DNA of 64,000 bases from a virus (IMGVR_UViG_3300028030_000011:12294-76293), one strand, 5' to 3'. Counted from the first letter of the stretch, positions 1 to 64,000 are shown. Numbers and translations: made by a program. The notes: generated by a model from the letters alone, not told the origin.

Positions 1-144
1 AGAGCTTTTAGACACCTGATAATGCTACGACAAGGCAAAGAGGTTTATAAGCCATTCAGAGAGCTTGTGAGAGCATTAATCGACAATATGCCAACAGAGT
101 ATGAATATCTTATTGAAGATTTATGTTTAGCTAAAGGAGATTAA
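1..144 (+). CDS. thyX: 3' end of a probable flavin-dependent thymidylate synthase (partial)
   Basis: Frame 1 reads RAFRHLIMLRQGKEVYKPFRELVRALIDNMPTEYEYLIEDLC...*, resembling the C-terminus of Campylobacterota-type ThyX; only 47 aa visible. Confidence 0.55.
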   Translation, partial: RAFRHLIMLRQGKEVYKPFRELVRALIDNMPTEYEYLIEDLCLAKGD

Positions 145-146
145 TA

Positions 147-509
147 ATGAAAATCAAAACACTTGAAAAACTAATGACTTATGATGAAGCATTGGAGTAT
201 ATTAATAATCATCAAGATTATAGATTTCCAACACTAGAAGAAGCAAGAGAATTAGATTATGAATATCCATACTGGGTAGAAGGTGAAAAAAAACCTGATA
301 TGGATTATGACAATGTTTTTCTTGCTCTTACAAATATGGGAGCAAGAAATGTTCTTTATAGATTGAAAATTGTAGTTATAAAAAAAGAAAGAACAATATA
401 TGTTGCTATAAAATTTAAAAATGCATTCAGAATGTTATTGACATCAATATTTGGAATCAAATATAATTTTATGATTGGAAAACAAGAGTATGAATTCGTG
501 AAAGAATAA
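147..509 (+). CDS. hypothetical protein
   Basis: 120-aa ORF with AAAGGAG RBS. Confidence 0.6.
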   Translation: MKIKTLEKLMTYDEALEYINNHQDYRFPTLEEARELDYEYPYWVEGEKKPDMDYDNVFLALTNMGARNVLYRLKIVVIKKERTIYVAIKFKNAFRMLLTSIFGIKYNFMIGKQEYEFVKE

Positions 510-511
510 TA

Positions 512-520
512 TGTTATAAT
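512..520 (+). promoter_or_regulatory. extended -10 sigma70 promoter (TGTTATAAT) upstream of helicase leader
   Basis: TGnTATAAT followed by a structured 200-nt leader. Confidence 0.55.
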
Positions 521-569
521 TTTTATGTTAAAACATAAGATTATCCTCTTCTTAATTGAAGAGGGTATT

Positions 570-666
570 AACTTTTTGAGGTTTACCAGACCATTGCAAA
601 TCTAGGAATATCACTTGGTATTCCTCAAAGAGTTTTCTACAAAAGATGTAATAGTCTGGTAAACTT
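570..666 (+). ncRNA. structured leader RNA (hairpin plus downstream antisense element)
   Basis: Stem 570-588/616-634; 579-598 is complementary to 647-666. Confidence 0.55.
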
Positions 667-726
667 ACTTCTTTTTTCTCTTTAAAAAAATATAAAATTA
701 CTATTGTTACTTTAAAAAGGATAACT

Positions 727-2532
727 ATGAAGATACAACTATACGATTATCAACAAGAAGCTGTTGATGAAATAGAATCAGAGTTTATGCTTGGTTCAAA
801 TAAAGTTATATTATCAGCATGTACCTCTTATGGAAAGACATTTACGTCATTATTCTATGCCATAGAGAATACAATGGGTAGGGTATTTATCTCTCTATCA
901 ATATCAGCTTTAGTAGACCAATTTATAGAATCTATCAACAAACTTGAATTTGAAGATTATGGAGTTGTTAAAAGAGGATATGAGCATCTATACAATCCAC
1001 AAGCTAGAATCCAAATAATTATGGATAATAGTTTTGTTAATAAACTTACTGATTTTGGTAGAGATTGTGAATTGCTCATTATAGATGAAATACATGTTAG
1101 AATAACTGGTGATAGGATGAAACAAATAATTGGTTGGTTACAACCTGAATATATTTTAGGAATGTCAGGTACACCTTATGATTCACGAGGATTCATTATA
1201 ACAGGTTTTACTACCATAGAGACAATAACACTTAAAGAGTTAACAGATAGGGGTAAATTGACTCCTATACGTTATTTTACTACTAAATTTGCAACAGAAG
1301 AGGATTTATCTTGTTACACAATTAGTGGAGATGATTATAGTCAAGAATCTTTGTCAAATTTATATAGCTCTGATGAGTATATGCGTAAAATGGTAGATGC
1401 TTATAAAAACATTGGTGATAAAATTGATTTAAATCCATATAACTGTAAAAGTATATGGCTATGCAGCACTATAGAAGCTTGTAATAAGTTGGAGGCAAAA
1501 CTACAAGATAATGGATTTGAAATATATGCTTATCATGGTAAGTTATCAGATACTGAAAGTAAGCAGTTGATGCACTCATTTAGGACAGGAGAACCACTTC
1601 CACCACAAGCAAGAAATTTATTAAATTATAATACAAGAGAAGAAAATAGATATGTTAATGGGTTAATATCAGTTCAAAAGTTAGCTGTAGGATTTGATGT
1701 TCCTGACATAGATATTGGTGTTGCTTGTAGCACTACAAAAGTTCGTTCAAAAATTATGCAGTACTATGGAAGATTGTGTAGGAAATCACCAAAAAAAGAA
1801 ACAGCATACTTCTTAGACTTTGGTCAAAATATTATGCTCCATGGCTTTGCTGATGAAGATTATAAACCACTTCCACCTGATGCTGATGTTGAAGAGATAA
1901 AAGAAAACAAAAGAAAACATTCTCTTGAATATCTTGATATTGTGTTTGATGGTTCAATTGGTTTACTTGAAATAAATAGAGAATCATACGAACTTAAATT
2001 AAAAGAAATGAAACAAGAAGGCAAATCATTGTCTGAGTTAACAATAGAAGAGCTTAAGAATAAATTTGCAATAGAAGAAGATTATCTTGAATTGATAATT
2101 ATGATGTTTGCATTTGTAAATAAAGTATATGGGTATGACGGAAAAAATGATACTCGTAATTATAAATCAAAATCATGGGATAAGGAGAACAATAGAGAAA
2201 AAGAAAAGGTAAATTATAACTTTTATAATGAATCAAAAGTTGATTGGGTAAGTGAAACATGGATAAAACTTTTCGATAAATATGATGATAAATATCTTCA
2301 TAGAAAATGGACTAAAGCTCTTAAAACAAGAATTAGAAGTGTTGTAAATTCTCAAAAGAGTATCTATAGTATTAGATTCTTTGCAGAAAAGTTAGAAGAG
2401 TGGTATCTTGAAGAGCAAGATAAAGAAATTGAAGTAGTTTATGAACCATCTGAATTAGAGAAACAATTAGAACAACAATCACAAGATGTATTTGAATATG
2501 AAATAGAAATAGATGAATCTATTCCATTCTGA
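727..2532 (+). CDS. SF2 DEAD/DEAH-box helicase
   Basis: Walker A-like ACTSYGKT, DEIH, SGT, GFDVPDID, QYYGRLCR. Confidence 0.9.
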   Translation: MKIQLYDYQQEAVDEIESEFMLGSNKVILSACTSYGKTFTSLFYAIENTMGRVFISLSISALVDQFIESINKLEFEDYGVVKRGYEHLYNPQARIQIIMDNSFVNKLTDFGRDCELLIIDEIHVRITGDRMKQIIGWLQPEYILGMSGTPYDSRGFIITGFTTIETITLKELTDRGKLTPIRYFTTKFATEEDLSCYTISGDDYSQESLSNLYSSDEYMRKMVDAYKNIGDKIDLNPYNCKSIWLCSTIEACNKLEAKLQDNGFEIYAYHGKLSDTESKQLMHSFRTGEPLPPQARNLLNYNTREENRYVNGLISVQKLAVGFDVPDIDIGVACSTTKVRSKIMQYYGRLCRKSPKKETAYFLDFGQNIMLHGFADEDYKPLPPDADVEEIKENKRKHSLEYLDIVFDGSIGLLEINRESYELKLKEMKQEGKSLSELTIEELKNKFAIEEDYLELIIMMFAFVNKVYGYDGKNDTRNYKSKSWDKENNREKEKVNYNFYNESKVDWVSETWIKLFDKYDDKYLHRKWTKALKTRIRSVVNSQKSIYSIRFFAEKLEEWYLEEQDKEIEVVYEPSELEKQLEQQSQDVFEYEIEIDESIPF

Positions 2533-2548
2533 TAACAAGGAGTAAACA

Positions 2549-3373: not shown

Positions 3374-3383
3374 AGGAAAAATT

Positions 3384-4229: not shown

Positions 4230-6362
4230 ATGAAAATAGATGATATAGTAAATGAAATAATCAAGGCTGGTAAACGTAAAACAGACCCAATGATTATCAA
4301 AGCTACTCTTCTTTATTTTGGAGCTATCTTGTTAAATAGATACTCTATTAGAAAAAATATAGATACTCTTCCAAATAGAATAAATGCATATTTTCTTGTA
4401 TTTGCAGTATCTGGTTCAGGTAAAAGTTTTATAATAAAAATAGTTGAAAATTTATGTGATTTAGAATCTTATGCAAAACAAAGAAAAACTGTATATGAAT
4501 ATATTATGGATTTATCTGAATGTGAACCAGATGACCAAACAATAAAGTTCCTACAAGGTAATGCTTACTCTCTTGGAGTATCAGGAACAAAAGAAGGATT
4601 GTTTGAATATTGTAAAGCTTATACTACTAGTCAGTTTGGTTCTATAAACATTCAATCTGATGAGATAGGAGATAATATAAATAGTTCTAACGACCTTTTG
4701 AACCAGCTTAAACAGATGTATGATGGTAAACTTCAAAAGAAGATTATTAAAGGCTCAGAAGAAGATTTTCCTGATGATGATATACATGGAATAGTTTGTA
4801 ATTTTTATGGAACTGGTTCAAAATCAGCCATAGATGCAAAAGATAGAAAAAAGCTAACAAATCTTGTTAAATCAGGTATGTTTAGAAGAAGTATATGTAT
4901 TGATTCAAAATTACAAGTTGAGAAGAAAATAATGGAAGAAGTTAATTATGAACCAATTCACAAATGGTTCATAGATTTAAATTTAAAGCATAAAAAGTCA
5001 TTATCAAATAGACTTGAAAAGTATGGAATGATTGGAACTTTAGATACTTTTATAAAATTTAGCAATAAAGCTATAGAAAAAGTAGATGATATAGATAAGC
5101 TTCTTGTTCAAAGAGCTAATAAAGATAAAATCAATGACCTTAAACAGATAGATACAGGGTCACTTGATATGATTATTAATATTGCTTGTATCATTTCTTT
5201 TTTACAAGACGATAAAGAAGTTGAAACTATACATCTTGATACAGCGTATCAATTCTTCTTAGATACTAGAGAAACAGTAGAGAAAACATTTGATGATATT
5301 CATGCTCATGATGAAGCATATAGAGTGTTAAAGCTAAAAAGTTCTCTTACGCATAGTGAAATAATGGATATTAGTGGACTTGATATTATACCTAAAGGTA
5401 AAAACTCTTGGAAAGATACAATAGAATTAGTTCATGAGCTATGTTATCGTAATGGAGAATATCTTAAAGAGAGTAGTGGCAGGGTTAAACGATATACGAT
5501 TGAGCCATTACCTGAAACTAATTTAGACCACCTAATCTTTTCATTGTCTACTGACGATAGAGGTGCTAAAGCAATTGCATTTAATCCTGTAGAGCTTGAA
5601 TGGAATGATATTGAATATCTTGTTAAAAGTAACAAGGTTGAATCATTTACAACTTCTCATTATAAAGAAAGTAATCATACAGGAGATTATGGTCATAGAA
5701 AAGCAGAATATGCAATACAAGGGCAAAACGTAATAGCATTCGATATAGATAGTGGGTTAACAATAGAAAAGGCTAGAGAGCTATTTTCAAGCTTTACATA
5801 TTGTTTATATACAACAAAATCACATCAAACAGAGAAAGGAGATTATTGTGATAGATTTAGAATAATATTACCAACAAAACATAAATTTTATGTTACACCT
5901 GAACAACATAAAGAGATGATAAAAAATGCTGAAATGGTATTAGGGTTAAAAAGTAATGATATACAAACTAGAAATGTATCTAGGCTTTGGTTCACTAATC
6001 AAAATGCTGATGAAGTAATTATTAATGATGGAGAACTATTTGATATATCAGGAATGATACCTGATACTAATAAATCAGATAAGTTTTTACCAAAACTCAA
6101 AGAGATGATGTCTAATGTTAATCAGACTTGTGAAATGCAAGATGAAATAACCAATAGAATAAATGGATTTACTAGGTATGCAATGTCTGTAGTAGCAGTA
6201 GGTAATCTTAAAGATACACTATTTAAACTAGGAACTTTCTGTATTGATTTAGGTTATCCATTATGGGAACAAAAGATGATTGATTTTACAAGAACTATTG
6301 GCTCTCCAATGCATATTACAGAAACAACAATAAAATCTCTTAAATCAAAATATAAATTATAA
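4230..6362 (+). CDS. N4 gp43 (Dns)-like P-loop NTPase/primase fusion
   Basis: N-terminal SGSGKS and DE; C-terminal AEP-like FDID, YTTKSH, RFRIILP; 710 aa; precedes AAA and SSB as in N4. Confidence 0.7.
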   Translation: MKIDDIVNEIIKAGKRKTDPMIIKATLLYFGAILLNRYSIRKNIDTLPNRINAYFLVFAVSGSGKSFIIKIVENLCDLESYAKQRKTVYEYIMDLSECEPDDQTIKFLQGNAYSLGVSGTKEGLFEYCKAYTTSQFGSINIQSDEIGDNINSSNDLLNQLKQMYDGKLQKKIIKGSEEDFPDDDIHGIVCNFYGTGSKSAIDAKDRKKLTNLVKSGMFRRSICIDSKLQVEKKIMEEVNYEPIHKWFIDLNLKHKKSLSNRLEKYGMIGTLDTFIKFSNKAIEKVDDIDKLLVQRANKDKINDLKQIDTGSLDMIINIACIISFLQDDKEVETIHLDTAYQFFLDTRETVEKTFDDIHAHDEAYRVLKLKSSLTHSEIMDISGLDIIPKGKNSWKDTIELVHELCYRNGEYLKESSGRVKRYTIEPLPETNLDHLIFSLSTDDRGAKAIAFNPVELEWNDIEYLVKSNKVESFTTSHYKESNHTGDYGHRKAEYAIQGQNVIAFDIDSGLTIEKARELFSSFTYCLYTTKSHQTEKGDYCDRFRIILPTKHKFYVTPEQHKEMIKNAEMVLGLKSNDIQTRNVSRLWFTNQNADEVIINDGELFDISGMIPDTNKSDKFLPKLKEMMSNVNQTCEMQDEITNRINGFTRYAMSVVAVGNLKDTLFKLGTFCIDLGYPLWEQKMIDFTRTIGSPMHITETTIKSLKSKYKL

Positions 6363-10889: not shown

Positions 10890-11819
10890 ATGAATGTACT
10901 ATCATTATTTGACGGTATAGGTACTGGTCAATTGGCATTGAAGCATTTAAATTTTAAAGTTGATAAATGTGTAGCTTATGAAATAGATGAATTGCCAAAA
11001 TCTATAGCTATGAGACATTTCCCTGATACTGATTATAGAGGAGATGTTAAGGAGTTTAATGTTAAAGATTTTGATTTTAAATTTGACCTCGTAATGGGTG
11101 GTAGTAGCTGTAATGACTTATCAAATGCTATGGCTAATAGAGATGGTATAGTTGGTTCAAAATCAAGTATATTCTTTGAATTTGTACGCATTTTAAAAAG
11201 CGTTAAACCTAAATACTTCTTATTTGAAAATGTAGGAAGCATGAGTAAAGCAGACGAAATAATTATAACTCAAATGCTTGGATGTGAACCAATAAAGATT
11301 AACAGTAAAGATTATTCTCCTGCTCTTCGTAATCGTTATTATTGGACTAATATTCCACAAGACAAACATGATAATGCATTTAAGAATGATATAAATTTAA
11401 ATGATATTCTTGAAGATGGTTGGTATTCAGATAGAAAGAAAGCTAGAGCATTATTGGCTTCTGATAGTAGACCTCTTACATCTCCTATTAAGATGATGCA
11501 TCGTTATATTAATACCGGATTTACAACTGTAGTATTCAGAAATAAAGAGATTGCAGATATGATGATTAAAGATTTCAAAGAAAGATTCTATGGGTTAAAA
11601 GCCAAAGATATTGATATGGAGTCTATTGATAAAAATATATACAGTAGCGAAAATATTAGATATTTGAACCAACTAGAATTAGAATCATGTCAAACTATAC
11701 CTCATGGCTATACAGATGGATTAACTAGAAATCAAGCTGCACATGTACTTGGTAATGGATGGACTTGTCTTGTTATTATGAAGCTACTTAACGGAATGGA
11801 AATGGAGAAAACATTATGA
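10890..11819 (+). CDS. DNA (cytosine-5) methyltransferase
   Basis: VLSLFDGIG, GGSSCNDLS, FENV, RNRYYW, LGNGW. Confidence 0.85.
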   Translation: MNVLSLFDGIGTGQLALKHLNFKVDKCVAYEIDELPKSIAMRHFPDTDYRGDVKEFNVKDFDFKFDLVMGGSSCNDLSNAMANRDGIVGSKSSIFFEFVRILKSVKPKYFLFENVGSMSKADEIIITQMLGCEPIKINSKDYSPALRNRYYWTNIPQDKHDNAFKNDINLNDILEDGWYSDRKKARALLASDSRPLTSPIKMMHRYINTGFTTVVFRNKEIADMMIKDFKERFYGLKAKDIDMESIDKNIYSSENIRYLNQLELESCQTIPHGYTDGLTRNQAAHVLGNGWTCLVIMKLLNGMEMEKTL

Positions 11820-12181: not shown

Positions 12182-12691
12182 ATGATGCAAAATTGGATTA
12201 CAAAAGATAAATTAGTAGATAATATTCATAAAGATATTCATGGTTTTGTATATTGTATCTATTATGAAGATGGTAAAAAATATATTGGTAAAAAGTCTTG
12301 TCACTCTTATATAACTAAACGACCTCTTAAAAGAGGTACAAATAAAGGATTTGTTTGCAAGATTAAAAGAACTGTGTATAGGGATATAGATGGTTCAATC
12401 GTTACGAGCAAAAACAAAATAAAAGCTCTAAGAGCGAAAGGGATTAAAGGAAAGATAGAAGAGTTTGATAAATGTATAGTGGAAAGTAATTGGCGTAAAT
12501 ATATAGGTTCTAGCAAAGAAGCAAAAGCTAGAAAAAATATGATTACTAAAAGAGAAATATTACATTTTTGTAGAAATAAAAAATATCTTTCATATATGGA
12601 GACAAAAGAGTTATTTTGTAGAGAAGTATTGGAAAATGAAAATTACATTAATGATAATATAAATGGTAGCTATTACCGAAAGGACGTATAG
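12182..12691 (+). CDS. GIY-YIG-like protein
   Basis: GFVYCI...KYIGKK, WRKYIGSS, REILH, YINDNING. Confidence 0.7.
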   Translation: MMQNWITKDKLVDNIHKDIHGFVYCIYYEDGKKYIGKKSCHSYITKRPLKRGTNKGFVCKIKRTVYRDIDGSIVTSKNKIKALRAKGIKGKIEEFDKCIVESNWRKYIGSSKEAKARKNMITKREILHFCRNKKYLSYMETKELFCREVLENENYINDNINGSYYRKDV

Positions 12692-13845: not shown

Positions 13846-13870
13846 TGAACCACATATAAGAGATGGTTCA
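13846..13870. terminator. TGAACCA-N11-TGGTTCA palindrome between convergent transcripts (partial cassette repeat A)
   Basis: Perfect 7-bp arms flanked by T-rich sequence. Confidence 0.55.
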
Positions 13871-13876: not shown

Positions 13877-14488
13877 TTATGCTAGTAGATTTTTAGCTTC
13901 TTCTATTTTAGTTTCATAGTAAGAAGCTATTTGTTTAAATTCTTCTTGCAATCTTTCAACCTCTGACTTCTGAGGCTTATTTGCTTTACACCATCTATCA
14001 TAAGCATTTCTTACTAAAGAAGAATCATAGGTTGGAGTATTATAAATCATTTTACCAACAGTACCATTTAATTCATCTGGTATTTCTCTTCTAACAGTTA
14101 TTTTGGCTTTTGTTTGAGCTAATCCACTCCATACTAAAGCATCCCATACCTCAGTCTCCATTACATCATCTTCAATATCTTCAAATGTAGTACCTATACA
14201 ACCTCTAACACTCATATAGCCATTTTCATATACTTTTGGTTTTTTAGCTATTTTAACAGCTTGTTCTATAGTTGGTCTTAATTCTCCTTTTTTATCTGTA
14301 TATTTAACGGGCTGAAATTTCAGCTCGTTAAATCTTTCTTCATCAAGAGTTGAAATCATTTTATTGAAATCAGAAACTAAATTTTTATTCTCTTTTCCAT
14401 ATTGGTCAGCTACATCTTTTAATGTCATTTTAAATCCTGCATTTTGCAAGAAACTCTCTGTTGGTGTTAATTCGATTAAATCTTTCAT
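13877..14488 (-). CDS. Rha N-terminus + KilAC-like C-terminal domain protein (cassette A1)
   Basis: MTLKDVADQYGKENKNLV...YTDKKGELRP followed by KPKVYENGYMSVRG. Confidence 0.75.
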   Translation of the reverse strand: MKDLIELTPTESFLQNAGFKMTLKDVADQYGKENKNLVSDFNKMISTLDEERFNELKFQPVKYTDKKGELRPTIEQAVKIAKKPKVYENGYMSVRGCIGTTFEDIEDDVMETEVWDALVWSGLAQTKAKITVRREIPDELNGTVGKMIYNTPTYDSSLVRNAYDRWCKANKPQKSEVERLQEEFKQIASYYETKIEEAKNLLA

Positions 14489-14552
14489 AGATTTATCCTT
14501 TAATTAAAAGTACGGACAATGATAAATTTTGTGAGAGTGAAGTTATGAAGAA

Positions 14553-14739
14553 TCTTGTCCAGAGAGTTCTTCAAACTATATATACACTCATTTCAGGTTC
14601 AAAAGTAGTTTAGAGAGGTAAAGTTACCTCTCAAAGAACTCTCTGGACGAGAAATCAATGTATACAAAACAATAAGTTTACTCAATGGTATTCATCTCTG
14701 AATACCTAGAAAGTGGCTTGAACACCATTCAGTAAACTT
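14553..14739 (-). ncRNA. double-hairpin structured leader of cassette A1
   Basis: GTCCAGAGAGTTCTT/AAGAACTCTCTGGAC perfect arms; second 21-bp imperfect stem 14674-14739. Confidence 0.6.
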
Positions 14740-14747
14740 TATAACAG

Positions 14748-14790
14748 TATATCACATCTATTTTAAGAACCACCTATAAGAGATGGTTCA
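14748..14790 (-). repeat. cassette repeat A (palindrome plus extended -10 promoter)
   Basis: TATATCACATCTATTTTAAGAACCACCTATAAGAGATGGTTCA, identical to the copy at 15595-15637. Confidence 0.9.
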
Positions 14791-14840
14791 GTTCTACCTT
14801 TTCCTGACTGACTCGCCTGACTGTCGAGCCAATAATTTAA

Positions 14841-15443
14841 TTAGTTGTAATACTGCTTTAATAAATTTATTGCACTATCAAATTTTATATAAGGTGTTTG
14901 AAACTCACCTCTAGTCTTCAATAAGCCATTGCAATCATTTTTCATGTGCCAATATCTAGTTGGTCTTATTGAATCTTCTATTGCTCCAAGTTTAACAAAG
15001 AACTCTTGTATTTGAGATTCTGTATAATCAGTTCTTTGTGCTATACCTCTTATAGAAGAATATCCATCAGAATCTATCATGCATAATTTCTTTTCTGATT
15101 TCAATAGTTTAATCTCTTCTTCTTTTGATGCTGTTAACATTTCATAAATAATATTATCACACCAAATTGCAAATTCTGGAGAAATCCATCTAGCAAATAT
15201 AATCAATAAACTATTATGGATTAATGTCTTTCCAACTATAGTTGTATTGATTAAGGTTCTTTTAACAGCGTTACATTTTTGTAACGCACTTAAATATTCC
15301 TTAACTCCTTTTGATTTTCTCCAATGAGTAAAATTTTTACCATGAGATTTAGCTATACCACTAACATCAATCATAAATTCTTTTTCATTGATTACCTCTA
15401 TAGGCAATACAGCTTCATTAAAAACTTTTACAAGTTCTTTCAT
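14841..15443 (-). CDS. KilA-N + KilAC-like domain protein (cassette A2)
   Basis: IDVSGIAKSHGKNFTHW, TLIHNSLLIIFARWISPEFAIWCD; start moved to MKELVK. Confidence 0.8.
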   Translation of the reverse strand: MKELVKVFNEAVLPIEVINEKEFMIDVSGIAKSHGKNFTHWRKSKGVKEYLSALQKCNAVKRTLINTTIVGKTLIHNSLLIIFARWISPEFAIWCDNIIYEMLTASKEEEIKLLKSEKKLCMIDSDGYSSIRGIAQRTDYTESQIQEFFVKLGAIEDSIRPTRYWHMKNDCNGLLKTRGEFQTPYIKFDSAINLLKQYYN

Positions 15444-15485
15444 GATATTTTCTTTCCATAACAATAATTCTAAGTTTTGATTGAT

Positions 15486-15588
15486 GGTGTATGAAATCAA
15501 CAATCACAAATTAATAACTTAGAGGTATATGAAAATTGAGTAATTTCCATATACCAATTATTGGCTTCATACACCTCTAAGCTATTAA
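15486..15588 (-). ncRNA. structured leader RNA of cassette A2
   Basis: 23-bp stem 15511-15533/15566-15588; 15557-15575 complementary to 15486-15504. Confidence 0.6.
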
Positions 15589-15589
15589 C

Positions 15590-15637
15590 AAAATTATATC
15601 ACATCTATTTTAAGAACCACCTATAAGAGATGGTTCA
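15590..15637 (-). repeat. cassette repeat A (48 bp)
   Basis: Minus strand reads TGAACCA-N11-TGGTTC-TTAAAATAGATG-TGATATAAT-TTT. Confidence 0.9.
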
Positions 15638-15642
15638 TTTAG

Positions 15643-16374
15643 CTATGCTAACAGATTTTCATCAACATACTTTATTGCAGCGTTAGAGAATCTCTCTCTC
15701 AATTCATCGGCTTCTTCTGATGTTGGTTTGCCATCTTGAATATATTTATAAACTAAATCATTTATGAATTTTAAATCAAATGTAGGTAGTCCATAACTAG
15801 TTCTTGAAGCCATCACATATTTAGCAATCTCATTATCTGTATCTATATCTCTTGATATTGTAATTTTAGGCATAGTCTTAACATACCCATAATGAACTAG
15901 CATATCCCATGCTTCATGTTCTTTTACTACTTCTATACCTTGCTCTTTCAATTCTACTAAACAACCCTTCAAACTCATAAAACCATTGTCATATACTTTT
16001 GGCTTTTTAGCATCTCTTATTGCTTTTGCCTTTTCTTTAGAAAATTCAATCCTTAAAGCATCTTCTCTAATCTTTTGAATTTCATCTCTCATAGTAAAAA
16101 ATTGATTTACAAGTTCCTCTTTGAATTTTTCAGTAATTTCATTGTTTGGTAACAATGTTAAAAGTAAGGTACAAGATTTTTCATCAAACTTCATTTCAGA
16201 ATAATTTAAGTCTTCCGACAAATCGTATGGATAACTTAATCCATTCTTAATCAACATATTTATCTTTCGTTTAACTATTTTCTTAACAGCTTCATCTCCA
16301 AGTTTAGAAAATTTAATAATAGTAGATAATTCTACAACAGCATTAGTGTTTTCAATAGTAATAAGATTTTGCAT
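15643..16374 (-). CDS. Rha-like + KilAC-like domain protein (cassette A3)
   Basis: TLLLTLLPNNEITEKFKEELVNQF; KPKVYDNGFMSLKG; GAGGA RBS before MQNLIT. Confidence 0.75.
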   Translation of the reverse strand: MQNLITIENTNAVVELSTIIKFSKLGDEAVKKIVKRKINMLIKNGLSYPYDLSEDLNYSEMKFDEKSCTLLLTLLPNNEITEKFKEELVNQFFTMRDEIQKIREDALRIEFSKEKAKAIRDAKKPKVYDNGFMSLKGCLVELKEQGIEVVKEHEAWDMLVHYGYVKTMPKITISRDIDTDNEIAKYVMASRTSYGLPTFDLKFINDLVYKYIQDGKPTSEEADELRERFSNAAIKYVDENLLA

Positions 16375-16418
16375 CTTTATTCCTCTTAACAATGGTAATA
16401 AATTTAGAGTTTGGATTT

Positions 16419-16526
16419 GATGTACCAAATCAATCCATAAACCTATTTAATATAGTAAACTCAAAGATGAACCAATTACGAGTGTAATTAGAACATCAAG
16501 ATGATTTGGTACATCTTTCAATTTAC
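16419..16526 (-). ncRNA. structured leader RNA of cassette A3
   Basis: Stem 16455-16474/16507-16526; 16502-16515 is the perfect 14-nt complement of 16419-16432. Confidence 0.6.
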
Positions 16527-16531: not shown

Positions 16532-16579
16532 AAAATTATATCACATCTATTTTAAGAACCACCTATATAGGATGGTTCA
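16532..16579 (-). repeat. cassette repeat A (48 bp), directly after vRNAP stop
   Basis: Near-identical to 15590-15637; differences only in the palindrome spacer. Confidence 0.9.
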
Positions 16580-16580: not shown

Positions 16581-19500
16581 TTAAAGCATATCATTTATAA
16601 TATGTACTGGTGCAGGAATAATTAAATCCTCTATATTTCCAAATGGATTTCTCATCTTCTCATCAGGAGTCATTAGTAACCAATAATTCTCAAATGGTGT
16701 AGCTATATCATATACCACTTTTTCAAATGCTTCTATAGCAAGTACAGTCTTAGGATTCTCTCTTAATAGCCTAGACATTACTTTTTGCATTCTAAGATAG
16801 TATTTAATGAATGGAAACCAAGCTACTTGGTCAGCCCATCTAACAGCTTTACCAAGAGGTATATCATACTGAACAAAATCATCTAATGCTTCATCATATA
16901 TCTGTTGATATGATTTATTTGTATTGTTCTCTTTCTCTAACTCTATTTGAGCATATCTAGCTGTAAAATCACTAGCTTGTGTAAAGTGATACATGAGTTT
17001 AAAATAGTTAGTGTCTTCTGCTAAATACAATTCTCTACCTATTTTTACTACCTTTTCAGGTAATATTTCTTCAACTTTATCTATAGCATCTCTGATAGGT
17101 TTTAGAGACTCAAAAGCTTTATTAATAGTTATGTCTTCTATTCTAGCTGACAATAATCCATCATCAATTAAACTTCTTATCTTATTCTGGTTCAATCTAC
17201 TTTGCAAATCTGTAATTAACTCTTCATCATAAAGTAACCCAGAATCTCTTTTAAGCTCTTCTTGCTTAAGTAAATCATCAGTTCTCATATAATCATTGAG
17301 ATACAAAAGACCTTCTTTTTGTTTTGCGTATATATCTCTTAAAGAATATCCTTTTGATTTAGTGAGGAATAAGTTAGAAACAAAGTTGCTTAACAACGTA
17401 AGAGGATATTTGATAATTACAGTAGCTTTCCATAATCCCATTAATTCTTTCCAAAAATCTTCTGCAAATTTTGCAACTTTCTTCATTGTTGGTATGTCAT
17501 TAAAAATACTAGATATAGAGCTATCACGAGAACCAAGAAATATATTTTTAGTATTACCATTAGCTGGTATATAGAATCTGCCTTTATATTTATCAACAAT
17601 ATAGTCTCTAGTATCTTGTGGCAACATATACCATATATCATCATATTCACTTACTTTATTCTCAAAGCCTTTACTAGCAAATGGAGCTGATATTTTTATC
17701 CACTCTTTATTGTCTGTTTTATCTACAAACTTATCAACTGTTTCATTATCTTCTAGTCCAAGTCTAACAATACTATCAATAACTCTAATATTTACTTCTT
17801 TTGCTTTTTGCTTTTCAAATCCTCTAGCTCTTTGGTTCGCATATATATCAGCAATATTGTATGAGTATTTTAGATATTTTTTCTTCTCTTCAAATGATAA
17901 TGGGTCATAATCATAGCGTGAACCATTTCTATTGAATACATACTCAGTATTATGAATTTTTACAAAATTAGGTCTAGCTCTACCATAAAGTTCAAAATAC
18001 AATTTATCTATATCTTGACTAACACTCTTTTCACCATATACTAATGCTCCTCTAGTATATGAATTCATTTCAGGAGTAAGAGAATATACATGAATATTAC
18101 CCGGACTAAATGGATTCTTAATTATCTTAATTCTTTCTCCACCTAATTCTCTGACTCTTTTTATTTCATCTTTGTTACTGTCTAATATATTTACTACAGA
18201 ATTAACTTTACTACTGTTTTGTATAGCAAGACCATCTTGAACTAAATCAGGGTTATCATGATAGAATTGCTCTAACATCTCTCTCTCATAGCTGTTTGTC
18301 ATAATCATTAAATCATGAAATGCATTCTTATCTTTTGTTACTTTAGATAAAAACTCTTTTTTGTAATTTTTTATTCCTAATAAAGATGCTAAAGCTGTCA
18401 TCTCATTCTTTTTGCTAAAATCAAATCTAGTAGCAATAACATGTATATTTCTAAATTTAGTATTCTCATCATGAGTGAGTCTATATTTAACTAGCTTCTT
18501 AATGTGTGGAATAGATTTTTTAGGAACTAATTTTTCTAATCTTCTTATCTCTTCATTTGGATTCTCAATAAGAGATAATATTTGGTCTATTGAATACCCT
18601 ACATCTAATAAATTACCAACTTTAGATGAATTAAGTAAGTTACCTAACAATGACTTCTCATATTCATTTAGACCCATATATTGAATCTTTTCATTAATAA
18701 ACTCATGTGTATTGGTTCGTAATTTTTCTCTTACAATATCAACTTCTTTAATTGAATTTCTAAGCTCTTGAACTTCAATGCTAGTATCTTTTGCTGTTTT
18801 AAATATATTATCACCCAATACTTGCAATTCATCAACTATATTATTTAGGAAACCTTCTTTATCTATTCTCGCTTTAGACATAGAATCAATACCTTTTGAG
18901 ATAATATCACCAATTGCATAACCAAACTCTTTTTTAGAGAATGGAATATTATTCATAGCCATAATAGCTAAAACTTTAGCAATTGTTTTTGTGTCTCCAA
19001 CTATAAATTTAGATATATTTCTTTTTAAAGAATCACTATCTTTTGACATATATTCAATTATATGAAAAACAGAAGATTTATTATCCTTGATTAAATCACT
19101 TCTTATTTTCAATGTTTTACTATGATAGAAGAATGCTAATTTGTTAACATTTGGTTTAATATTTTCATTATATTTATCACCAGCAAATCTAAGAGCTTTA
19201 TACACACCATTAAATACTTTATTCTCATTTTCAATAGTTATTCCTACACTCTGTTTTACAAGTGTTTGTAATTTACTTTGCATATCTAAATCTATTCTTC
19301 CATTAGTGAGAAGCATAGTTAATTTCTTTAATGAAGATGTAACAATATTTACAAGATTACTCAAAATAGAACCATTACCTTTATTCAATATTGTATTCAT
19401 GCCAGATAGATTGTTCATAAAATTCTTATTTGTTAATCCATATGCTGCAAACTCTGATACATCTCCTTTACCACCAAATACATGTTTAGCCATTCTTTTA

Positions 19501-22500
19501 GCTAATTGTTCATCTTCTACTGTATATACACCATCTTTAGGAAGGAATAATTTATATATATCTTTACCATGCTGCTGTTTTAACTCTTTCATCATATCTG
19601 TTATTTGATTAACAAATATATTTGCGTCTTTTAATGCACCATCAAAAATATTATGAACTAACTCATGCACATATACTTCTTGTGCTGACATGCTCATATT
19701 GTCACTACCTTGGTTAGCAATAGCTATTTTAGCAACATTCGAACCACTTGCACTACCGTAACTCATACTATCTGTTTTACCTACTGCAACTACAATTGTT
19801 TCCATTACAGGAGCTATAATACTACTTAAAACATTTGATAGTTTATTGCTGTATTCAGAGCTAATTACATCATTTGACCATTGTTTTATTTTCTCAAATG
19901 ATTTAATTATATTCTCTTTATTTACTTTAAATGTAAAATATGGTTTAAACTCTTCATTTGTATCAAGAGATTGTTTTGTGTTGTTAATCTCTTGTTTTGC
20001 TTTTTTAAGTTTCGTCAAATGACTATTCAATTTGGTCTTATCCAATTGAATAATCTCTATGCCACTATCCTTCATTATTTCATTAACAGCTCTAACTAAA
20101 GCATAGCCTGTTAGGCTTTCAAGTTTTCTAACAGGTATTTTATCAAATGCTTCTAATACATCTTCAAGCTCTATTTTTGATAATTCAGGATTAGAACCAT
20201 TCTTCATGAGATGCTCATAATTTAAATCATTAGCTGTCGTTTTAGTCTTAGGGGTGTAATTATTAATCTCATTATTAAGACCTGTCAATGATTCACTTTG
20301 ACCTAATTTTTCATTTGTCTCTTCTTTATATTTGTCATAAATTTTTTTATGCTCAGTAGTATCTATAGGTTTAAAATCATTTGATTCATTTTTGACATAT
20401 CTTTCGTCTACTCCAACAGAATGCTCAATTGTAGTTACAATGTCCTTTAATATGCGTCTGTTTAACTGATTCAATTCAATATGAAAATCAATAGATATAG
20501 GGTCAAAATATATGCTACCATTATCACCTACTTTTACAGTAGATAAAGTTCCTATCATCATTGAATCTATTTGCTTTTTCGATAATTTATCTTTATCTAA
20601 TGATTCGTAGAATCTAAATAATCTATCTGTAGCATATTCAGTATATGGTATTATTTTATTATCTACTTTCATATCATGAACAGATTTAGGCAACATTGCA
20701 TTTATATTTTCTTTAGTCCACTCATAATTGTTAAATGCTATTTTTGCATTTTTAAGAACTTCAACAAATGGTGAATATCCACTATCAATAAGTTTATTAA
20801 CACTTTTATTATATTGTTTAGCTCCACCTTCTGCTGATAGAACAGCATCAAAAATATACAATCCTATATTTTCTTGTGAAGTATTTTTGATAGTGTCTGC
20901 AAGTACACCAGAGTCAGTCATAAGAGTTGATAGAGCTGGTGTTCTTACTCCAATATCAATCCATGATGTAACTCCAATAGTTTGAGTAGACATCAAATGT
21001 CTATCCTTGCCTTTTGTAGCCACTTTGACTTGATAGTTTTTACCCTTTATAATATTGTTTATTTGGTCATTAAAACCTCTCTTCATTAACTCACCTTGTC
21101 TACCCTCAAAAGTGGTTAAAACAGGTGCTATCCCATCTTTAATGAGCTTATTTGTTATCTCATTGATTACTTGCTTAGAGATAAATCCATGTTCTTTATG
21201 ATATGCGTCTAATCGTCTAAAGAACTCATCTAAAAAATATTTATTTTGAAGATTAGATACTCTTTGAGTAATCTCTGTACCTTGCTTAAAAGGAGCTAGA
21301 ACTTTATTTATAGAATCAGTAATCACTTTACCTAAAGTGTTTCTATAATTAGTTCTTAATGTAGCTAACTGTTTAGCAGTAAATTCAAAATCATTTAAAT
21401 TATAATTATATTTATTTGTATTTGTAGGATTCTCTAAACTATGTAACCTCTCATTGAGGTGGTTCATCAATTCTTGAATATTTTCATCATTAAATTGAGA
21501 CTCTTGTACTTTACCATTTATTGTAAGTTTAACCTCTTTCCCATTTGAATCTTTGTTAAAATTAACAATTGATTGAACCATCTGAACGACTAATTGTATC
21601 TCTTGCTTTGTTGATTTACCATTAGCAATATCTTCTATTTTAGTATAAAAATCATCTATCATTTCATCAAATTTACTGTCCTGAATAGACTTGTCACCAG
21701 CTGTATATCCTTTAGCAATTATAGGTGTTTTAAAGAAGTTTCTAGCTTGTCTAAGAGCTTCTGACCCTTTAGATAATGTATCAGATACAACCCATGATTC
21801 TAGCATAGGCTTAAAAAAGTTATTGAATAGATTATATCTAGCTACTTTAGCATAGTATGCATTCTTTTCGTTAACTGTCTTTAATTCTTTCTTTGGTGGC
21901 TCAGGCTTACGATTATGCTCATAATCATTATCTTTATCCTGCAATCTATTGTGCATTTCAATACCTGATTCTTCATAGTTATCAAGACCTACATAGTCAG
22001 TATTTTTTGTTGTGTCAGTTTGGTTCGTATAGATACCACCTTTATGAAGCATTTCAACAGATTTGCTATCTAATGGATTGAAATAGAATATTGATTGTAA
22101 AGTCGAACCACTCTGTTTTGCATCAGTCTCTTTTTCAAGTGTAGTTTCAAATATATCACCTTTTTTATTTACAAACTTTTTAAGTTCTACCAATCCTTGA
22201 AGAGTATATGCTCCTTCTCCATATTTTTGAACCAGTTCAATAGGAGGATATATAGACTTATCATTGAGATATGACATTAGTTCACTATCTAATAACAACT
22301 TACCAAACTCTTCTAGTATTTCATCAGGCTTCATATTCTCAGATTTCATTCCAAATGAATCAAGAATAGCTGATTTCCATATTAGCATTCTACCTTCATC
22401 TTTAATATCAACAGTTCTTTTAGAGTTGATATTATGAGTCAAAAATCTATGTAATTTATTTGACTGAGGGTTAATCAGTTCAGCTACCAAATGCATTCTC

Positions 22501-25500
22501 TCTTCACTAGCTCTCTTATATTTGTAATACATAGGTGTATTACCTATTGTTTCTATTACCTCCATAAGAGTATCTATTGAATCATCTATTTGTAGATTCT
22601 TACCTTTAATAGAAGCATGTTTAGATGTATGTGAATATATTCCAGCAGTATTAGCAAATTTAAAATCATATCCCATAATAGTTCTAAGATAGTCTCTAAA
22701 CTCTTTTTCTCCTAACTCTTGATATAAATCAATTATCTCTTGCTTTATCTGTCTGGGTGCTTGTTGTTGCTTATTTATAGCCTCATCTTTTACTATTTCG
22801 TGTGGAGTGGTTCTCTCTTCTGGTAAATGCATTCTGAACACTTTTTTAAGTACAGCCTTACCTTTACCTCTAATTGGAGATTTATCATTTGCACGAAGGA
22901 AATTTACTCTTTTATTGCTATCTGTACTGTATGGTATAGCTCTATACGCATTAAACTCTTTCATTGTCATTGAGAACTGTTCTACATTAGCTAAATTAGA
23001 TGTTCTAAGCAAATGAGTAGCAAGTAGTGCTATAGCACTACCAAATCTCTCTTTTGCTAATGGGTTATTAGATTGGAGAGAGATATATTCATTCATAAGA
23101 TTTGACATTGAAGAGATAATATTGGATTGTAATTTACCATATTTAAATCTACTTTTCATGGCTACAGTCACATCATGTTCAGAGTTTAAACCAAGAAGTG
23201 TAGCTATATCTTCATCAGTATTCTCATTGAACATCTCTCCACCTTGATTCATCATCCCATCAATGGCTACAAATGTAACAAGATTAACAAGAGTATTTTC
23301 ATCTAATCCATTTAACATTTCATTGTATTTATCAGAATCTTCTTTATTGAAATCCATGGCAAATATCTCACCTCTATCAGATATGTTTTGAACCAGTTCT
23401 CTAGCTTGTTTTATTAGGGGTCTAACAATATTGTTAAAATATTGAATCTCCTTATCTTTTGTAGAATAATCATTACCTTGTGTACCTTCAATACTTTGAG
23501 ATATTAAATCCCATGTCTCAAAGGCTTTCATTAAACCAAATTTCACCCCTTTAGGTAATTTCATTTTTTGTAATTTATTATAGAAGCCTTTATCTATTGT
23601 ATTTATCTTGGCAATAAATCCATCTGTTAATTTACCTGTAGCTTTTAGCTTCTTCTTGTACTCTGACATCAAAACATTTATATTTTGTTTTCTTGATACT
23701 TCATTGGTTCTATATTGTTTAGATTTTACTTGTAATTCAATTAAAGCACTAAGCTCTTTATTTAAAGAATCAAGTTCTTTTTGAATCTGTTCTTTATTTT
23801 TGAAAAGTTTTGTAATCAGAGAGTTAATCTCTTTTACAAATTGTTTTATTTTTTCAACAATTACTTCTCTTAGTGATGGAAGAATTTCAGATTTCTTATC
23901 TTTATTTAATTTAGATTTTTTACCTTTTTTAAACTTTTTAGTATTCTCTATCCTTTTATTAATGGTTTCTAAATCTTTTTCTAATTTAGCTATTTTTTTC
24001 TTTTTATCATTTATCTCTTTTTGTACCCCTTTATATCTCTTTTTCCATTTACCATCTTTAGTTTGGTATATTCCATCAAGTTTAGCTTGTAGCTCATCAA
24101 TTTTTCTTTCAAGTCTACTAGCTCTTTTATCTTCTTTTACAGGTGTAAGCTCTTTCTTTTTAGTGTTAAAAGATTTCTTTAACTCATTAGCATATTGATT
24201 AGCTAATTTTCTATTTTGTAAATCTTGTAAACCTTTAGCAAATGCATCTTTAGCTTCATCTATAGTAGATGCTTTCTCTATATTAGAGATATGTGAACCA
24301 ACTACTTTTTTATCTTCTTTTATTTGCTTATCTTCTTTAGTATCTTGTTGAGATGGTTCATTAGTTATAGATGTTTCGCTTGGTATTCCACCCCTACTTT
24401 TTAAAAAGTTATTATAGCTCTCATTGACAGCTTTAGCTTCTCTCTCTATTCTATCGACTAATTTAACACTACCATTGTGATTAGCATCTACATACTCTTC
24501 TGTACCAAGACTATTTACTCCAAGAGAAACTCTTTTGCCTGTCGCTCTAGATTCTACAAGTGCTTGTTTGAATCTTATAGCCTTATCATTCATTTGACCA
24601 ACAAATCTTTTGTATCCAGACTCTTCTATTTGTTTTGGTGTAGCATCAGATAGTCTTGACTCCCATTGGGAAATACCTACATTATTATTATCACCAGTAA
24701 ATATCTCTTTAGAGACTTGATATTTATCTTTTACTTGATTATACTCTTTAGATTTATCAATTTGTTCCTGAACACTTTTATCTTCTGTTCTGATAGTATC
24801 AACATTAGGCATATCCATAAAAGCACTAATATTGGCACTTTCATTATCACTAATAGAGTTTTTAGTTATTGGATTATTATCTACTACACTTTTAAGAGAT
24901 GCTTTAGCTGTTTGTATAGAATCAAGTACTTGTTTGATATTTAGGATATTGTCTATATCTTGTAGTGTATAGCCTTTATCTTTTAAAGATTTTGGAACTT
25001 TAGGATTCTCTTTATCGTATAAAGCATCATACTCTTCATCAGTTATAACATTTTGAATTTCATTTGAAATGTTATCAATCTCTTTAACAGCATCTTTACC
25101 AATCTTATCATGAAACTCTTTTTCAAGATTATCTACTTCATTATACGAGTTAGATGCATCTTCAACAGTTTTAACTTCTTTGCCCATTACTTGATGATAA
25201 TTAGGCATCTTGCTTTGTACTGTATGATATGCTCTCTTCGTATCTATCTTCTTTGCAGTATCTTGTTTAGGTGGTTCATTTACTACTGTAGTCTCTTGTT
25301 GTGTAGAAGGCTCTGTTGTTGGTGTTTGTGGTTCAGGATACTCATTGGTTGCATTAGGTGTTACAGGCTCTGTATTAGATTGCTTTGTCTTAAAATTATC
25401 TCTAGCTCTTGTAAGTGTCTGTAGCAACTCTTCTTTTGATAATTTACTTAAAGACATTTTAGTAATTGTACCAGTATTTCTAATAATAGGACTATTGTCT

Positions 25501-36915: not shown

Positions 36916-36978
36916 TAAAATTATATCATATAAATCTTTAATGAGTAGAGTTAGTGTTTAGCTAACTCTTGTTTGATT
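36916..36978 (-). repeat. cassette repeat B (63 bp; hairpin plus TGATATAAT promoter)
   Basis: One mismatch versus 37784-37846. Confidence 0.9.
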
Positions 36979-37783: not shown

Positions 37784-37846
37784 TAAAATTATATCATATA
37801 AATCTTTAACGAGTAGAGTTAGTGTTTAGCTAACTCTTGTTTGATT
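37784..37846 (-). repeat. cassette repeat B (63 bp)
   Basis: One mismatch versus 36916-36978. Confidence 0.9.
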
Positions 37847-37849: not shown

Positions 37850-38623
37850 CTAGTTCTCCCCTAGCTCATCCATTGGTCTATATTTGGCTCCCCAACCCTT
37901 TACAGACTTTCTAACACCTCTAAGAACTTTAGCCATATTGCTAGTAGTAGAACCAACGAACTCAGAAGCTTCTTTATTTGATGTGAATACTTTTTCTTCT
38001 CCTGTATCATTGTTTGTTAGAATTATATCTCTACCAGAAATCTTAACTATTTTAGGAACAGCTTTCTCCTCCATCTTTCTATATGAGTACATATAGCCAC
38101 CATGAACTTGTCTACCCTCTTCTGTATTATTGTTTGTATCATTTGTTAAACACTCTGATACATGAGCAGTATTGAGCTTTAATAGTCTACAAGCTTCTAT
38201 AGGGTTTCTATAGCTTCCTAAGTACTTTCCATCTAAAGCATCATATAAGAACACTCTCTTTGGTTTAGAAGCTATCTGTGAATTTTCTCCTAATGATATA
38301 ACTCTACAGTTATTTGGGGTATAATTCTTTAGTGGGTCTATTCTATCACATACAAGAGTTTGTTGGTTCGCACTACCAATTCTTGGAATATATCCACCAA
38401 CTATCATCCATCTAGCGTATGCAAAATAATCATATCTCCACTCATCACATACCTCAATACCTTTAGCTCCATACTTATGGTAATTACGGTCGTTCTCATT
38501 ATGGCATCTTCTATTCATAGTATTCCATATTCTTCTAAGTTTATGGTTCACTAACGACTTAGGGTCTGTCATGAGGTCATGAAGTAATTCTTCTGTTGTA
38601 AACTTTTCTACAAAATTAGCCAT
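37850..38623 (-). CDS. free-standing HNH-type homing endonuclease with NUMOD1-like repeats
   Basis: WNTMNRRC...YGAKGIEVCDEW...DRID...NYTPNNCR; two C-terminal HTH-like modules. Confidence 0.75.
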   Translation of the reverse strand: MANFVEKFTTEELLHDLMTDPKSLVNHKLRRIWNTMNRRCHNENDRNYHKYGAKGIEVCDEWRYDYFAYARWMIVGGYIPRIGSANQQTLVCDRIDPLKNYTPNNCRVISLGENSQIASKPKRVFLYDALDGKYLGSYRNPIEACRLLKLNTAHVSECLTNDTNNNTEEGRQVHGGYMYSYRKMEEKAVPKIVKISGRDIILTNNDTGEEKVFTSNKEASEFVGSTTSNMAKVLRGVRKSVKGWGAKYRPMDELGEN

Positions 38624-61796: not shown

Positions 61797-61836
61797 CCCA
61801 TTATGGTTACTTACAGTATTTTGAACCACCAAACAC

Positions 61837-62660: not shown

Positions 62661-63091
62661 TGCCTTCTCATAAGTACGAAATAACTCCATTAACATATCA
62701 AGAGTTTGTTGATAAGTATCATACTGTAAGCTCATTTGCTTATAGAAGATATTTATTGACCAATAGAGACAACCACCATTATAATGATGTTTGTATTCGT
62801 GAGTGGTTCAATGAGCAATTAAAAACAAATCTTATCATTACTGATATTGATACTCTCAGAACTGTGCCTAATAATATTGGCTATCATCACATGGAAGTAA
62901 ATTTTAATGATGGTGAAGAGTGTTCTACTAAAATGATATTTACAATTATTAAAGATTGTATCAAATTTCAAAGAACACTTCATTCATTTAAAGCAGGTAC
63001 TGATACTATCTCTAATGATTCCAAATATGGTATTAGAATGTATGGTAATAATTATAAATTCTATATTGTATTGCCATCTATTAAAAATTAG
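62660..63091 (+). CDS. hypothetical protein
   Basis: GAGGAGG RBS, TAATG coupling. Confidence 0.55.
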   Translation: MPSHKYEITPLTYQEFVDKYHTVSSFAYRRYLLTNRDNHHYNDVCIREWFNEQLKTNLIITDIDTLRTVPNNIGYHHMEVNFNDGEECSTKMIFTIIKDCIKFQRTLHSFKAGTDTISNDSKYGIRMYGNNYKFYIVLPSIKN

Positions 63092-63108
63092 GTTATTTCT
63101 AGTCTCCG

Positions 63109-63191
63109 ATAGCACTGGTTCATAATTGAGGGTAAGGTCTTTTATATCCTTTCAACTTACTCTCACTTATGAATCATGTGCTATTTTTTTT
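63109..63191 (+). terminator. long hairpin terminator
   Basis: ATAGCAC-TGGTTCATAA...TTATGAATCA-T-GTGCTAT followed by a T run. Confidence 0.6.
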
Positions 63192-63322
63192 AAAAGATAG
63201 TGTTCTCTACAGAGCCAATATAAGCCATTTTACCTCTTATGGTATGCTATGGTATTGGTTCGATAGAGAATAGCGATTCTAAGCTATTCTGATTCAAAAT
63301 AAATACATATAAAGGATTTCTT

Positions 63323-63676
63323 ATGGAAAGAGAATTTAAACAAATTGGTACAACATCATTAAAAGTTGTAGAAACGTCTTTAAAGACATTAGACCTAGTG
63401 GTTAATGAGATAGCATTACCTATAGAGAGTTATGCTCAAAATCAGCAAGATAGACGTGCTGAGAGAGCTAAACACTCTGATAGTAATAGACTATTTATTC
63501 AAGCTGATGAAACTGATAAGATTAAAGAAGAGTTTGCTGAAAGATATATTCGTATTAGAGATAGTATCAATAGACGTAAACAAAACTTTCTCAATAATGG
63601 CTTTACACAAGATGAAGCTGATGCAATGGTTAAAGATGATATGGATAACTTGAAAGAGTTAGCTAAGCTATTATAG
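63323..63676 (+). CDS. hypothetical early protein
   Basis: 117-aa ORF with AAAGGA RBS. Confidence 0.55.
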   Translation: MEREFKQIGTTSLKVVETSLKTLDLVVNEIALPIESYAQNQQDRRAERAKHSDSNRLFIQADETDKIKEEFAERYIRIRDSINRRKQNFLNNGFTQDEADAMVKDDMDNLKELAKLL

Positions 63677-63680
63677 ATAT

Positions 63681-63707
63681 AAGAGTAACTTAGGTTGCTC
63701 TTTTTTT
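63681..63707 (+). terminator. intrinsic terminator
   Basis: AAGAGTAAC/GTTGCTCTT plus T run. Confidence 0.7.
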
Positions 63708-63729
63708 GAGTAAGATAGTGTTTGTTTCC

Positions 63730-63985
63730 ATTATTTCCATATTGTTTCCACTTTTGTTGGAAACTATATCTTATTTCTTACTATTTCTTACTATTTCTTA
63801 TCTATTTCCGACCTATTTCCGAGAAATAGGTAATAGTGTCTCCCAAAAAATTAGGAAATATTTATATTGTGGGAAGAACTAGATATGAAATAGATAGGAA
63901 ATAGGTCGGAAATAGGCTATTTCCGATTACCTTTAATCTATTTCCGATATTTCCTATATTTTTTTACATATCTATTTCCTATATA
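63730..63985. repeat. TATTTC-rich repeat region with 19-bp perfect inverted repeat
   Basis: CTATTTCCGACCTATTTCC (63802-63820) versus GGAAATAGGTCGGAAATAG (63897-63915); tandem CTATTTCTTA. Confidence 0.75.
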
Positions 63986-64000
63986 TCTAGTTCTTATACA

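Follow-up and report, generated by a model that had tools for sequence, protein, structure and literature searches.

The window analysed here is a 64,000-nt stretch of viral DNA (bases 12294-76293 of the 76,293-bp IMG/VR record IMGVR_UViG_3300028030_000011, 29.8% GC, the record being 90%-complete), and the element in question is the heptamer TGAACCA/TGGTTCA, which is dispersed over it in 100 exact copies where dinucleotide-preserving shuffles give 8.12 ± 3.24 and a maximum of 17. An earlier note on this DNA had claimed roughly 95-100 copies and an over-representation throughout the genome; the exact count agrees with the former, all positions that it listed do hold the word, and the over-representation turns out to be stronger than first thought. 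The word is a phage-lineage signal, family-wide among N4-like phages in several variants, and not a host signal, and the genome in hand shows its sharpest form seen, a 7-mer at about 15 fold over composition. By analogy with other primases we propose, at slightly less than even confidence, that TGAACCA would be a primase start word, read by the phage's own orthologue of N4 gp43.

Over the whole genome, 117 copies are found against 7.7-20 expected under Markov models of order 0-3, and TGAACCA is the top 7-mer under orders 0-2 (the maximal-order model is too conditioned to be useful for a 7-mer); the looser core GAACCA has 167 copies. The enrichment persists under the codon- and dipeptide-preserving test that the earlier note had put forward: against 99 copies observed, a synonymous-codon shuffle within genes expects 29.6 ± 4.6, a codon-order shuffle 14.1 ± 3.5, and a shuffle that also fixes codon-junction dinucleotides 65.2 ± 4.3. 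An analytic null keeping proteins and codon usage expects 25.3 where 98 are found (z 14.3), with TGAACCA as the top 7-mer and the next unrelated one at z 5.6. A coding artefact was ruled out by the three codon shuffles and the analytic null. The letters of the word are nearly fully specified, with zero copies of GGAACCA, TGGACCA, TGATCCA and TGAACCG; AGAACCA is a weaker variant (37 vs 7.7), and a mild preference for C and T is seen two and three bases past the word.

All five stop-free reading frames are enriched, by 2.5-6.5 fold over the synonymous null, and the word is denser between genes, with 19 of the 117 copies in non-coding DNA (8.7% of the genome) and 98 inside genes. The occurrence in several frames and in intergenic DNA that had been described earlier is thus confirmed, and the view of the word as a signal at the DNA level and not a by-product of coding is supported, given that all frames, both strands and intergenic DNA carry it and that it survives protein-preserving nulls. 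TGGTTCA and TGAACCA on the coding strand stand at 59:39, the 3:2 split expected because TGA cannot be in frame. Glu-Pro is spelled GAA CCA in 40 of 50 dipeptides (36% expected from codon usage) and Trp-Phe is spelled TGG TTC in 13 of 16, though TTC accounts for 26% of Phe codons; the dipeptides able to host the word are themselves somewhat over-used (Gly-Ser 113 vs 78 expected, Trp-Phe 17 vs 8.7).

For the family comparison we used 16 complete or near-complete N4-like genomes from IMG/VR (this phage and 15 others, given below as G numbers, one comparison genome being coliphage N4 itself by an identity check) and an extra sample of 38 structural-region loci of 15-21 kb; the controls were T7, 16-23 T7-like loci, a 50-kb E. 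coli segment and five Sulfurovum/Sulfurimonas-like candidate host genomes. When 2080 hexamers were ranked under a protein-preserving null, the top one had the form R-A-(A/G/T)-C-C-A in 14 of the 16 genomes, namely GAACCA in this phage, N4, G004, G005, G006, G010 (together with GAGCCA) and G014, AAGCCA/AAACCA (AARCCA) in G007-G009, G011 and G012, and GATCCA in G015 and G016; in G017 AAGCCA comes second, weakly. Coliphage N4 has GAACCA 205 times against 64 (z 17.5) and the 7-mer GAACCAG 103 times against 24, and in the closest relative of the phage studied here (G001, a 27-kb fragment) GAACCA comes first (53 vs 19), AGAACCA being the preferred 7-mer. Such a word ranks first of 2080 in 14 of the 38 loci and among the top 5 in 23, its summed observed/expected ratio is 1.13-2.5 in every one, and in 34 of them the leading NNNCCA hexamer belongs to a set of five related words. 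The flanking bases are clade-specific across the 16 genomes: T precedes the word in this phage (70%, never G) and C often follows, G follows in N4, G014 and G011, A follows in G004 and G007, and G precedes in G006.

GAACCA is not enriched in T7 (29 vs 21.7), and GAACCA-type words have a median observed/expected ratio of 0.96 in the T7-like loci; a general phage effect was ruled out by these two controls. The E. coli segment shows no enrichment of N4's word (35 vs 31.2), and in the five candidate host genomes TGAACCA has a frequency of 0.10-0.25 per kb, close to that of a control word, compared with 1.53 per kb in the phage, by which a host signal was ruled out for N4 and for this phage, respectively. 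The comparison with related phages and candidate hosts that had been suggested earlier thus finds the phages enriched and the hosts not. Word-bearing genomes have GC contents of 30-59%, their hosts range from Campylobacterota to E. coli and Achromobacter, and GAACCA is common to lineages whose primases are only ~21% identical, which argues that the word is old and is read by something that the phages bring. Literature searches for the word in N4-like phages gave primer sequences only, and no phage-owned, family-wide word with clade variants and absent from hosts turned up in them.

A close examination of the layout shows copies ~1.3 kb apart on average per strand in this genome, with top-strand gaps more even than random (coefficient of variation, CV, 0.76). 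Across 12 N4-like genomes gaps average 0.4-1.3 kb per strand, with the CV at or below 1 in most; gaps are as even as random or more so (CV 0.75-0.9 in many genomes) and copies are unclustered. In most N4-like genomes an enrichment of 2.3-4.9 fold is seen on both strands and for both gene orientations, and strand polarity is little, amounting to a slight, inconsistent excess on the strand coding for the replication genes (top strand). As a word with little polarity that is not enriched in hosts, it could only have a phage-encoded enzyme as its reader. No preferred distance between neighbouring copies is found family-wide; convergent pairs 15-17 nt apart, six in this genome, and four at 14-16 in G005, are a local feature of these two genomes. 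In genes aligned with G001 (62% nucleotide identity), 7 of 32 sites are at a homologous position (5.8% expected) and the others have moved, yet both phages retain about threefold enrichment. The pattern is one of many weakly selected, interchangeable sites, in which the density is kept and not the individual site.

Candidate readers were compared by BLASTP (E <= 1e-3) with the 15 other N4-like genomes. The Rha/KilA-N proteins have no homologue in any of them, and were rejected as readers together with the palindromic operator model, for which no family-wide pair spacing exists. All but one of the 15 genomes (G013) are enriched for the core word or a close variant. The Rha/KilA-N/KilAC paralogues, which the earlier note had put forward as candidate readers, are thus not supported, nor are the palindromes as the essence of the signal; the DNA-level signal stands. 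Also rejected as family-wide readers were a C-5 cytosine methylase, a candidate reader or modifier unique to this genome among the 16 compared, and a PD-(D/E)XK nuclease with two helicases, none of which has a homologue in the others; an AAA_24 protein likewise has none. The links that BLASTP does give are to the primase, virion RNA polymerase, capsid, portal and probable terminase proteins, plus two late-region proteins without assigned function, and outside the structural proteins conservation with N4 is limited to the virion RNA polymerase and an archaeo-eukaryotic primase (AEP) with a PriCT-1 helix bundle.

The primase has orthologues in all 15 other genomes, and no N4-like phage without it was found, the weak-signal genomes G013-G017 included. 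The alignment of the orthologues falls into three parts: an N-terminal half with a P-loop, an AEP core bearing DxD, H and D motifs, and, at the C terminus, a helix bundle with the motif GNRNN. Of 10 orthologues, Pfam recognises PriCT_1 in 7 (best E 6e-11), and in 4 it places DUF3987 in the P-loop half. The best fold match of the structural model is the AEP domain of S-2L PrimPol, a weak one (E 0.017, at a predicted local distance difference test score, pLDDT, of 50.6), followed by further weak matches to the AEP domains of poxvirus D5/E5 and CAPP. In the N4 and AARCCA clades a purine follows the word in 62-81% of copies, as would be expected if the primer starts there.

Precedents for such a reader exist among helix-bundle AEP primases. 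The helix bundle of pRN1 ORF904 reads 5'-GTG-3', and the recognition words of NrS-1 PrimPol are 5'-TTTGGTTA-3' and 5'-GTG-3' / 5'-GTG(A/G)-3', with binding of the recognition site attributed to its helix bundle (PMC8718748). TGGTT is common to 5'-TTTGGTTA-3' and the template form of TGAACCA, and the enzymes belong to the same class with a reading domain of the same general kind; they differ in that the primase of this phage has no sequence similarity to that of NrS-1.

T7 provides a positive control from another class of enzyme. The sites of T7 gp4 primase are 5'-(G/T)(G/T)GTC-3', for example TGGTC giving the primer ACCA. Among NNNCCA hexamers TGACCA comes first in 12 of 23 T7-like loci and AGACCA in 4, and both contain the T7 site 5'-TGGTC-3', so that the ranking recovers a known site and the statistic can find primase sites. 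TGACCA/TGGTCA is also the top hexamer of several T7-like genomes under the protein-preserving null, and GACCA is ~1.5 fold enriched on both T7 strands; the T7-like results suggest that these phages, too, are under mild selection for primase sites. The two words are alike in being short, asymmetric, present on both strands and, for ours under the proposed mechanism, read on single-stranded template, TGGTTC and TGGTC differing by one T. In contrast, the T7 primase is of the DnaG/TOPRIM kind with a zinc finger and the N4-type one an AEP with a PriCT-1 bundle, and the enrichment in T7 is mild, ~1.5 fold for a 5-nt word against 3-15 fold for 6-7 nt here.

From these observations the following mechanism may be proposed. 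TGAACCA would be the lineage version of a short word with the core GAACCA, generally R-A-R/T-C-C-A, which the C-terminal PriCT-1 bundle would bind on single-stranded DNA, as 5'-TGGTTC(A)-3' of the template strand, and the AEP primase would begin its primer at or beside it. A site of 6-7 nt is too rare by chance, at ~1 per 19 kb per strand here, and enrichment in the genome would for that reason have raised its density to roughly one per 0.4-1.3 kb on each strand, comparable in scale to Okazaki fragments; a spacing of about this size is indeed seen genome-wide, on both strands, in the 12 genomes measured above. The density on both strands would be kept by selection that acts on synonymous sites and non-coding DNA and also on the choice of some amino acids. 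What we infer here is the primase as the reader and priming as the function, on the grounds of elimination, domain content, precedent and the one positive control. In its full form, a priming code of 6-7 nt in which lagging-strand primers start only at R-A-R/T-C-C-A, codons and even amino acids are rewritten genome-wide so as to provide one site per few hundred bases and clades have drifted to variants, the proposal is possible, though we lean against it somewhat.

A number of points weigh against the primase as reader. The gp43-type primase is tied to the word by elimination and analogy, and BLASTP could miss diverged readers such as a single-stranded DNA-binding protein or small DNA-binding proteins. 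The primase family is found only in N4-like phages (469 of 469 records, with no non-N4 phage among the matches), so that it is inseparable from the family itself, and the structural model behind the fold matches is poor. The word variants follow the primase tree only roughly, and no alignment column or residue of the primase separates the variant groups cleanly. G013 (IMGVR_UViG_3300000233_000008) has a gp43-type primase without a GAACCA-type signal, and is instead enriched for the palindrome GCCGGC (33 vs 4) and for AGCCGGC (24 vs 2). C is the most frequent base after the word in the clade to which this phage itself belongs, and NrS-1, tried as a second positive control, shows no enrichment of its own site, with a single copy of the long word.

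Among the rival explanations, the one that survives best is a self-identity or Chi-like word, by which a phage helicase-nuclease or another DNA-processing enzyme would spare or recombine word-bearing DNA and process the rest. A dense spread over the whole genome in both orientations would shield a linear genome from either end, the PD-(D/E)XK nuclease and the two helicases adjoin the primase, and the word is not enriched in hosts. The nuclease and helicases are, however, by BLASTP not shared with the other 15 genomes though the word is, the strand polarity typical of Chi is missing, and known Chi sites are far less dense than the 1 per 0.25-0.65 kb of the word; we consider this explanation unlikely. 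Chi (RecBCD/AddAB) and the FtsK-orienting polar sequences (KOPS) do resemble the present word as over-represented asymmetric words of 5-8 nt selected in coding DNA, but they are host-chromosome words with strong polarity, whereas this one is phage-only and nearly symmetric.

A second rival, quite unlikely, takes the word as the binding site of a protein on double-stranded DNA, whose role would be to coat or organise the genome or to regulate transcription; the Rha/KilA-N proteins are included here. A 7-bp site suits one DNA-binding domain and word palindromes adjoin the cassette promoters here; but Rha/KilA-N is missing from the other word-bearing genomes, the spread is even, without a family-wide spacing or clustering at regulatory regions, and half-sites 16-18 bp apart face different sides of the helix. 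The stoperators of cluster A mycobacteriophages are similar in that many copies of one short asymmetric site are found per phage genome; they are 13 bp long, number ~25-30, lie between genes, are oriented with transcription and are repressor-bound, as opposed to 117 copies mostly inside genes and in both orientations.

A non-adaptive drive, in which a sequence-specific mismatch repair or polymerase bias of the kind of very-short-patch repair turns near-matches into the word, would agree with the fast turnover of sites at kept density and with the presence of a Dcm-like methylase in this phage. We find it very unlikely, as one-step neighbours are not consistently depleted (TAAACCA, CGAACCA, TGAATCA and TGAGCCA are above expectation), the methylase is not family-wide, no Vsr-like gene was seen, and the amino-acid choices given above for Gly-Ser and Trp-Phe are shifted too. 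Alternatively, the bases of the word might be methylated or hypermodified by a phage enzyme. A non-palindromic word of 6-7 bp is what type IIS/III or orphan methylases use, and N4-type phages resist many defence systems (PMC8594841), which can be counted in favour. On the other side, no conserved modification enzyme was found, and an enrichment of 3-15 fold is unlike modification targets, which tend to be neutral or avoided; this makes this highly improbable in our view.

A host-derived signal shared with the chromosome (uptake sequence, host Chi or KOPS) has next to no chance, being already contradicted by E. coli and the five candidate hosts and by a word common to phages of unrelated hosts from 30% to 59% GC, even if its distribution recalls that of uptake sequences in covering both orientations and all frames and in forming inverted pairs at the ends of genes. 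The likeness to the DNA uptake sequences of Neisseria and the uptake signal sequences of Pasteurellaceae extends to the density of ~1 per kb and to lineage variants; those, however, are a property of competent bacteria, and here the carrier is a lytic-type phage family whose hosts lack the enrichment.

We also examined the inverted pairs (Table 1). Those that the earlier note had reported at 4949, 13846 and 35954 are all present and perfect, with spacers of N9, N11 and N10, and the near-perfect pair that it saw over the -35 position in each repeat A is there as well, ending 14 nt upstream of a minus-strand TGnTATAAT element. The hairpins of the three perfect and three repeat-A pairs are modest, at -8 to -12 kcal/mol. 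The pair within the primase gene is not a terminator since it is inside a coding region, and the pair at 13846, judged by its sequence, looks like one. Consensus promoter and terminator scans missed the cassette elements. We read the inverted pairs as hairpin stems made from the word where the sequence is otherwise free, and not as the functional unit; uptake sequences are likewise used as stems in terminators. At the ends of a second cassette array (KilA-N, KilA-N, HNH) lies a repeat of another kind, 63 bp long, which carries a hairpin of its own and, again, the TGATATAAT core, but no TGAACCA pair. Three free-standing genes of homing-endonuclease type are interspersed with the Rha/KilA-N cassettes.

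Table 1. Positions in the window of the word, its inverted pairs and the genes and repeats named in the text
Feature	Position	Strand	Details
Dispersed word TGAACCA/TGGTTCA	1-64000	both (53 +, 47 -)	100 copies, exact count
Primase, N4 gp43 orthologue	4230-6362	+	710 aa; PHROG 2135 'DNA primase'
Perfect inverted pair TGAACCA-N9-TGGTTCA	4949-4971		within primase gene; RNA hairpin -9.8 kcal/mol
C-5 cytosine DNA methylase (Dcm-like)	10890-11819	+	Pfam PF00145, E 2.5e-26
SegE-like GIY-YIG gene, homing-endonuclease type	12182-12691	+	
Perfect inverted pair (N11)	13846-13870		followed by run of T, between convergent genes; -7.7 kcal/mol
Three cassette genes: Rha-like, KilA-N, Rha-like	13877-16428	-	Pfam
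Repeat A copy AGAACCA-N11-TGGTTCA	14766-14790		just upstream of minus-strand TGATATAAT promoter element of cassette gene
Repeat A copy AGAACCA-N11-TGGTTCA	15613-15637		
Repeat A copy AGAACCA-N11-TGGTTCA	16555-16579		
Virion RNA polymerase-sized gene	16581-27461	-	3,626 aa
HNH gene with NUMOD4, homing-endonuclease type	34224-34736	+	
Ribonucleotide reductase small subunit	35022-35807	+	
Perfect inverted pair (N10, 8-bp stem)	35954-35977		between convergent genes; -11.7 kcal/mol
63-bp repeat of second cassette array	36916-36978		
63-bp repeat of second cassette array	37784-37846		
I-HmuI-like NUMOD gene, homing-endonuclease type	37850-38623	-	

By its gene content, the phage of the window is an N4-like one: besides the virion RNA polymerase-sized gene, an N4-gp56-type major capsid protein, a portal and the N4-type DNA primase are encoded. 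Its closest relatives in a protein search have 90% and 79% capsid identity, and among cultured phages the portal matches Schitoviridae only, at ~34% identity, which places it as deep-branching. Neither a family A DNA polymerase nor N4-type RNA polymerase II (RNAPII) subunits were recognised by Pfam or PHROGs in the 90%-complete record; they may have been replaced, be too diverged for recognition or lie within the missing 10%, and the primase and virion RNA polymerase are present. The small subunit of ribonucleotide reductase shares 79-85% identity with its counterparts in metagenome-assembled genomes of Campylobacterota, among them Sulfurovum, Sulfurimonas and Nitratifractor, and this one gene suggests a Sulfurovum-like Campylobacterota of deep-sea vent or sediment as the likely host. 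Avoidance of short palindromes is extreme over the whole genome (observed vs expected: GATC 0 vs 209, CGCG 0 vs 38, GGCC 0 vs 38, GCGC 1 vs 38, TCGA 43 vs 209, ACGT 55 vs 209); this is classic restriction-site avoidance, standing beside the positive selection for TGAACCA.

Words selected genome-wide, such as Chi, uptake sequences and KOPS, are known in bacteria. The word described here is carried by coliphage N4, a laboratory model, so that its reader is findable by ordinary biochemistry. If the primase reads it, the specificity of gp43-type AEP primases would become known, the spelling of 80% of Glu-Pro dipeptides in one way in this phage would be explained, and the word would serve as a signature for N4-like contigs and as a constraint on recoding or engineering such phages. 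If another protein turns out to be the reader, the word would point to a new phage self-recognition system. Should the priming code be true, this would be the first case of primase specificity visibly shaping a whole genome sequence.

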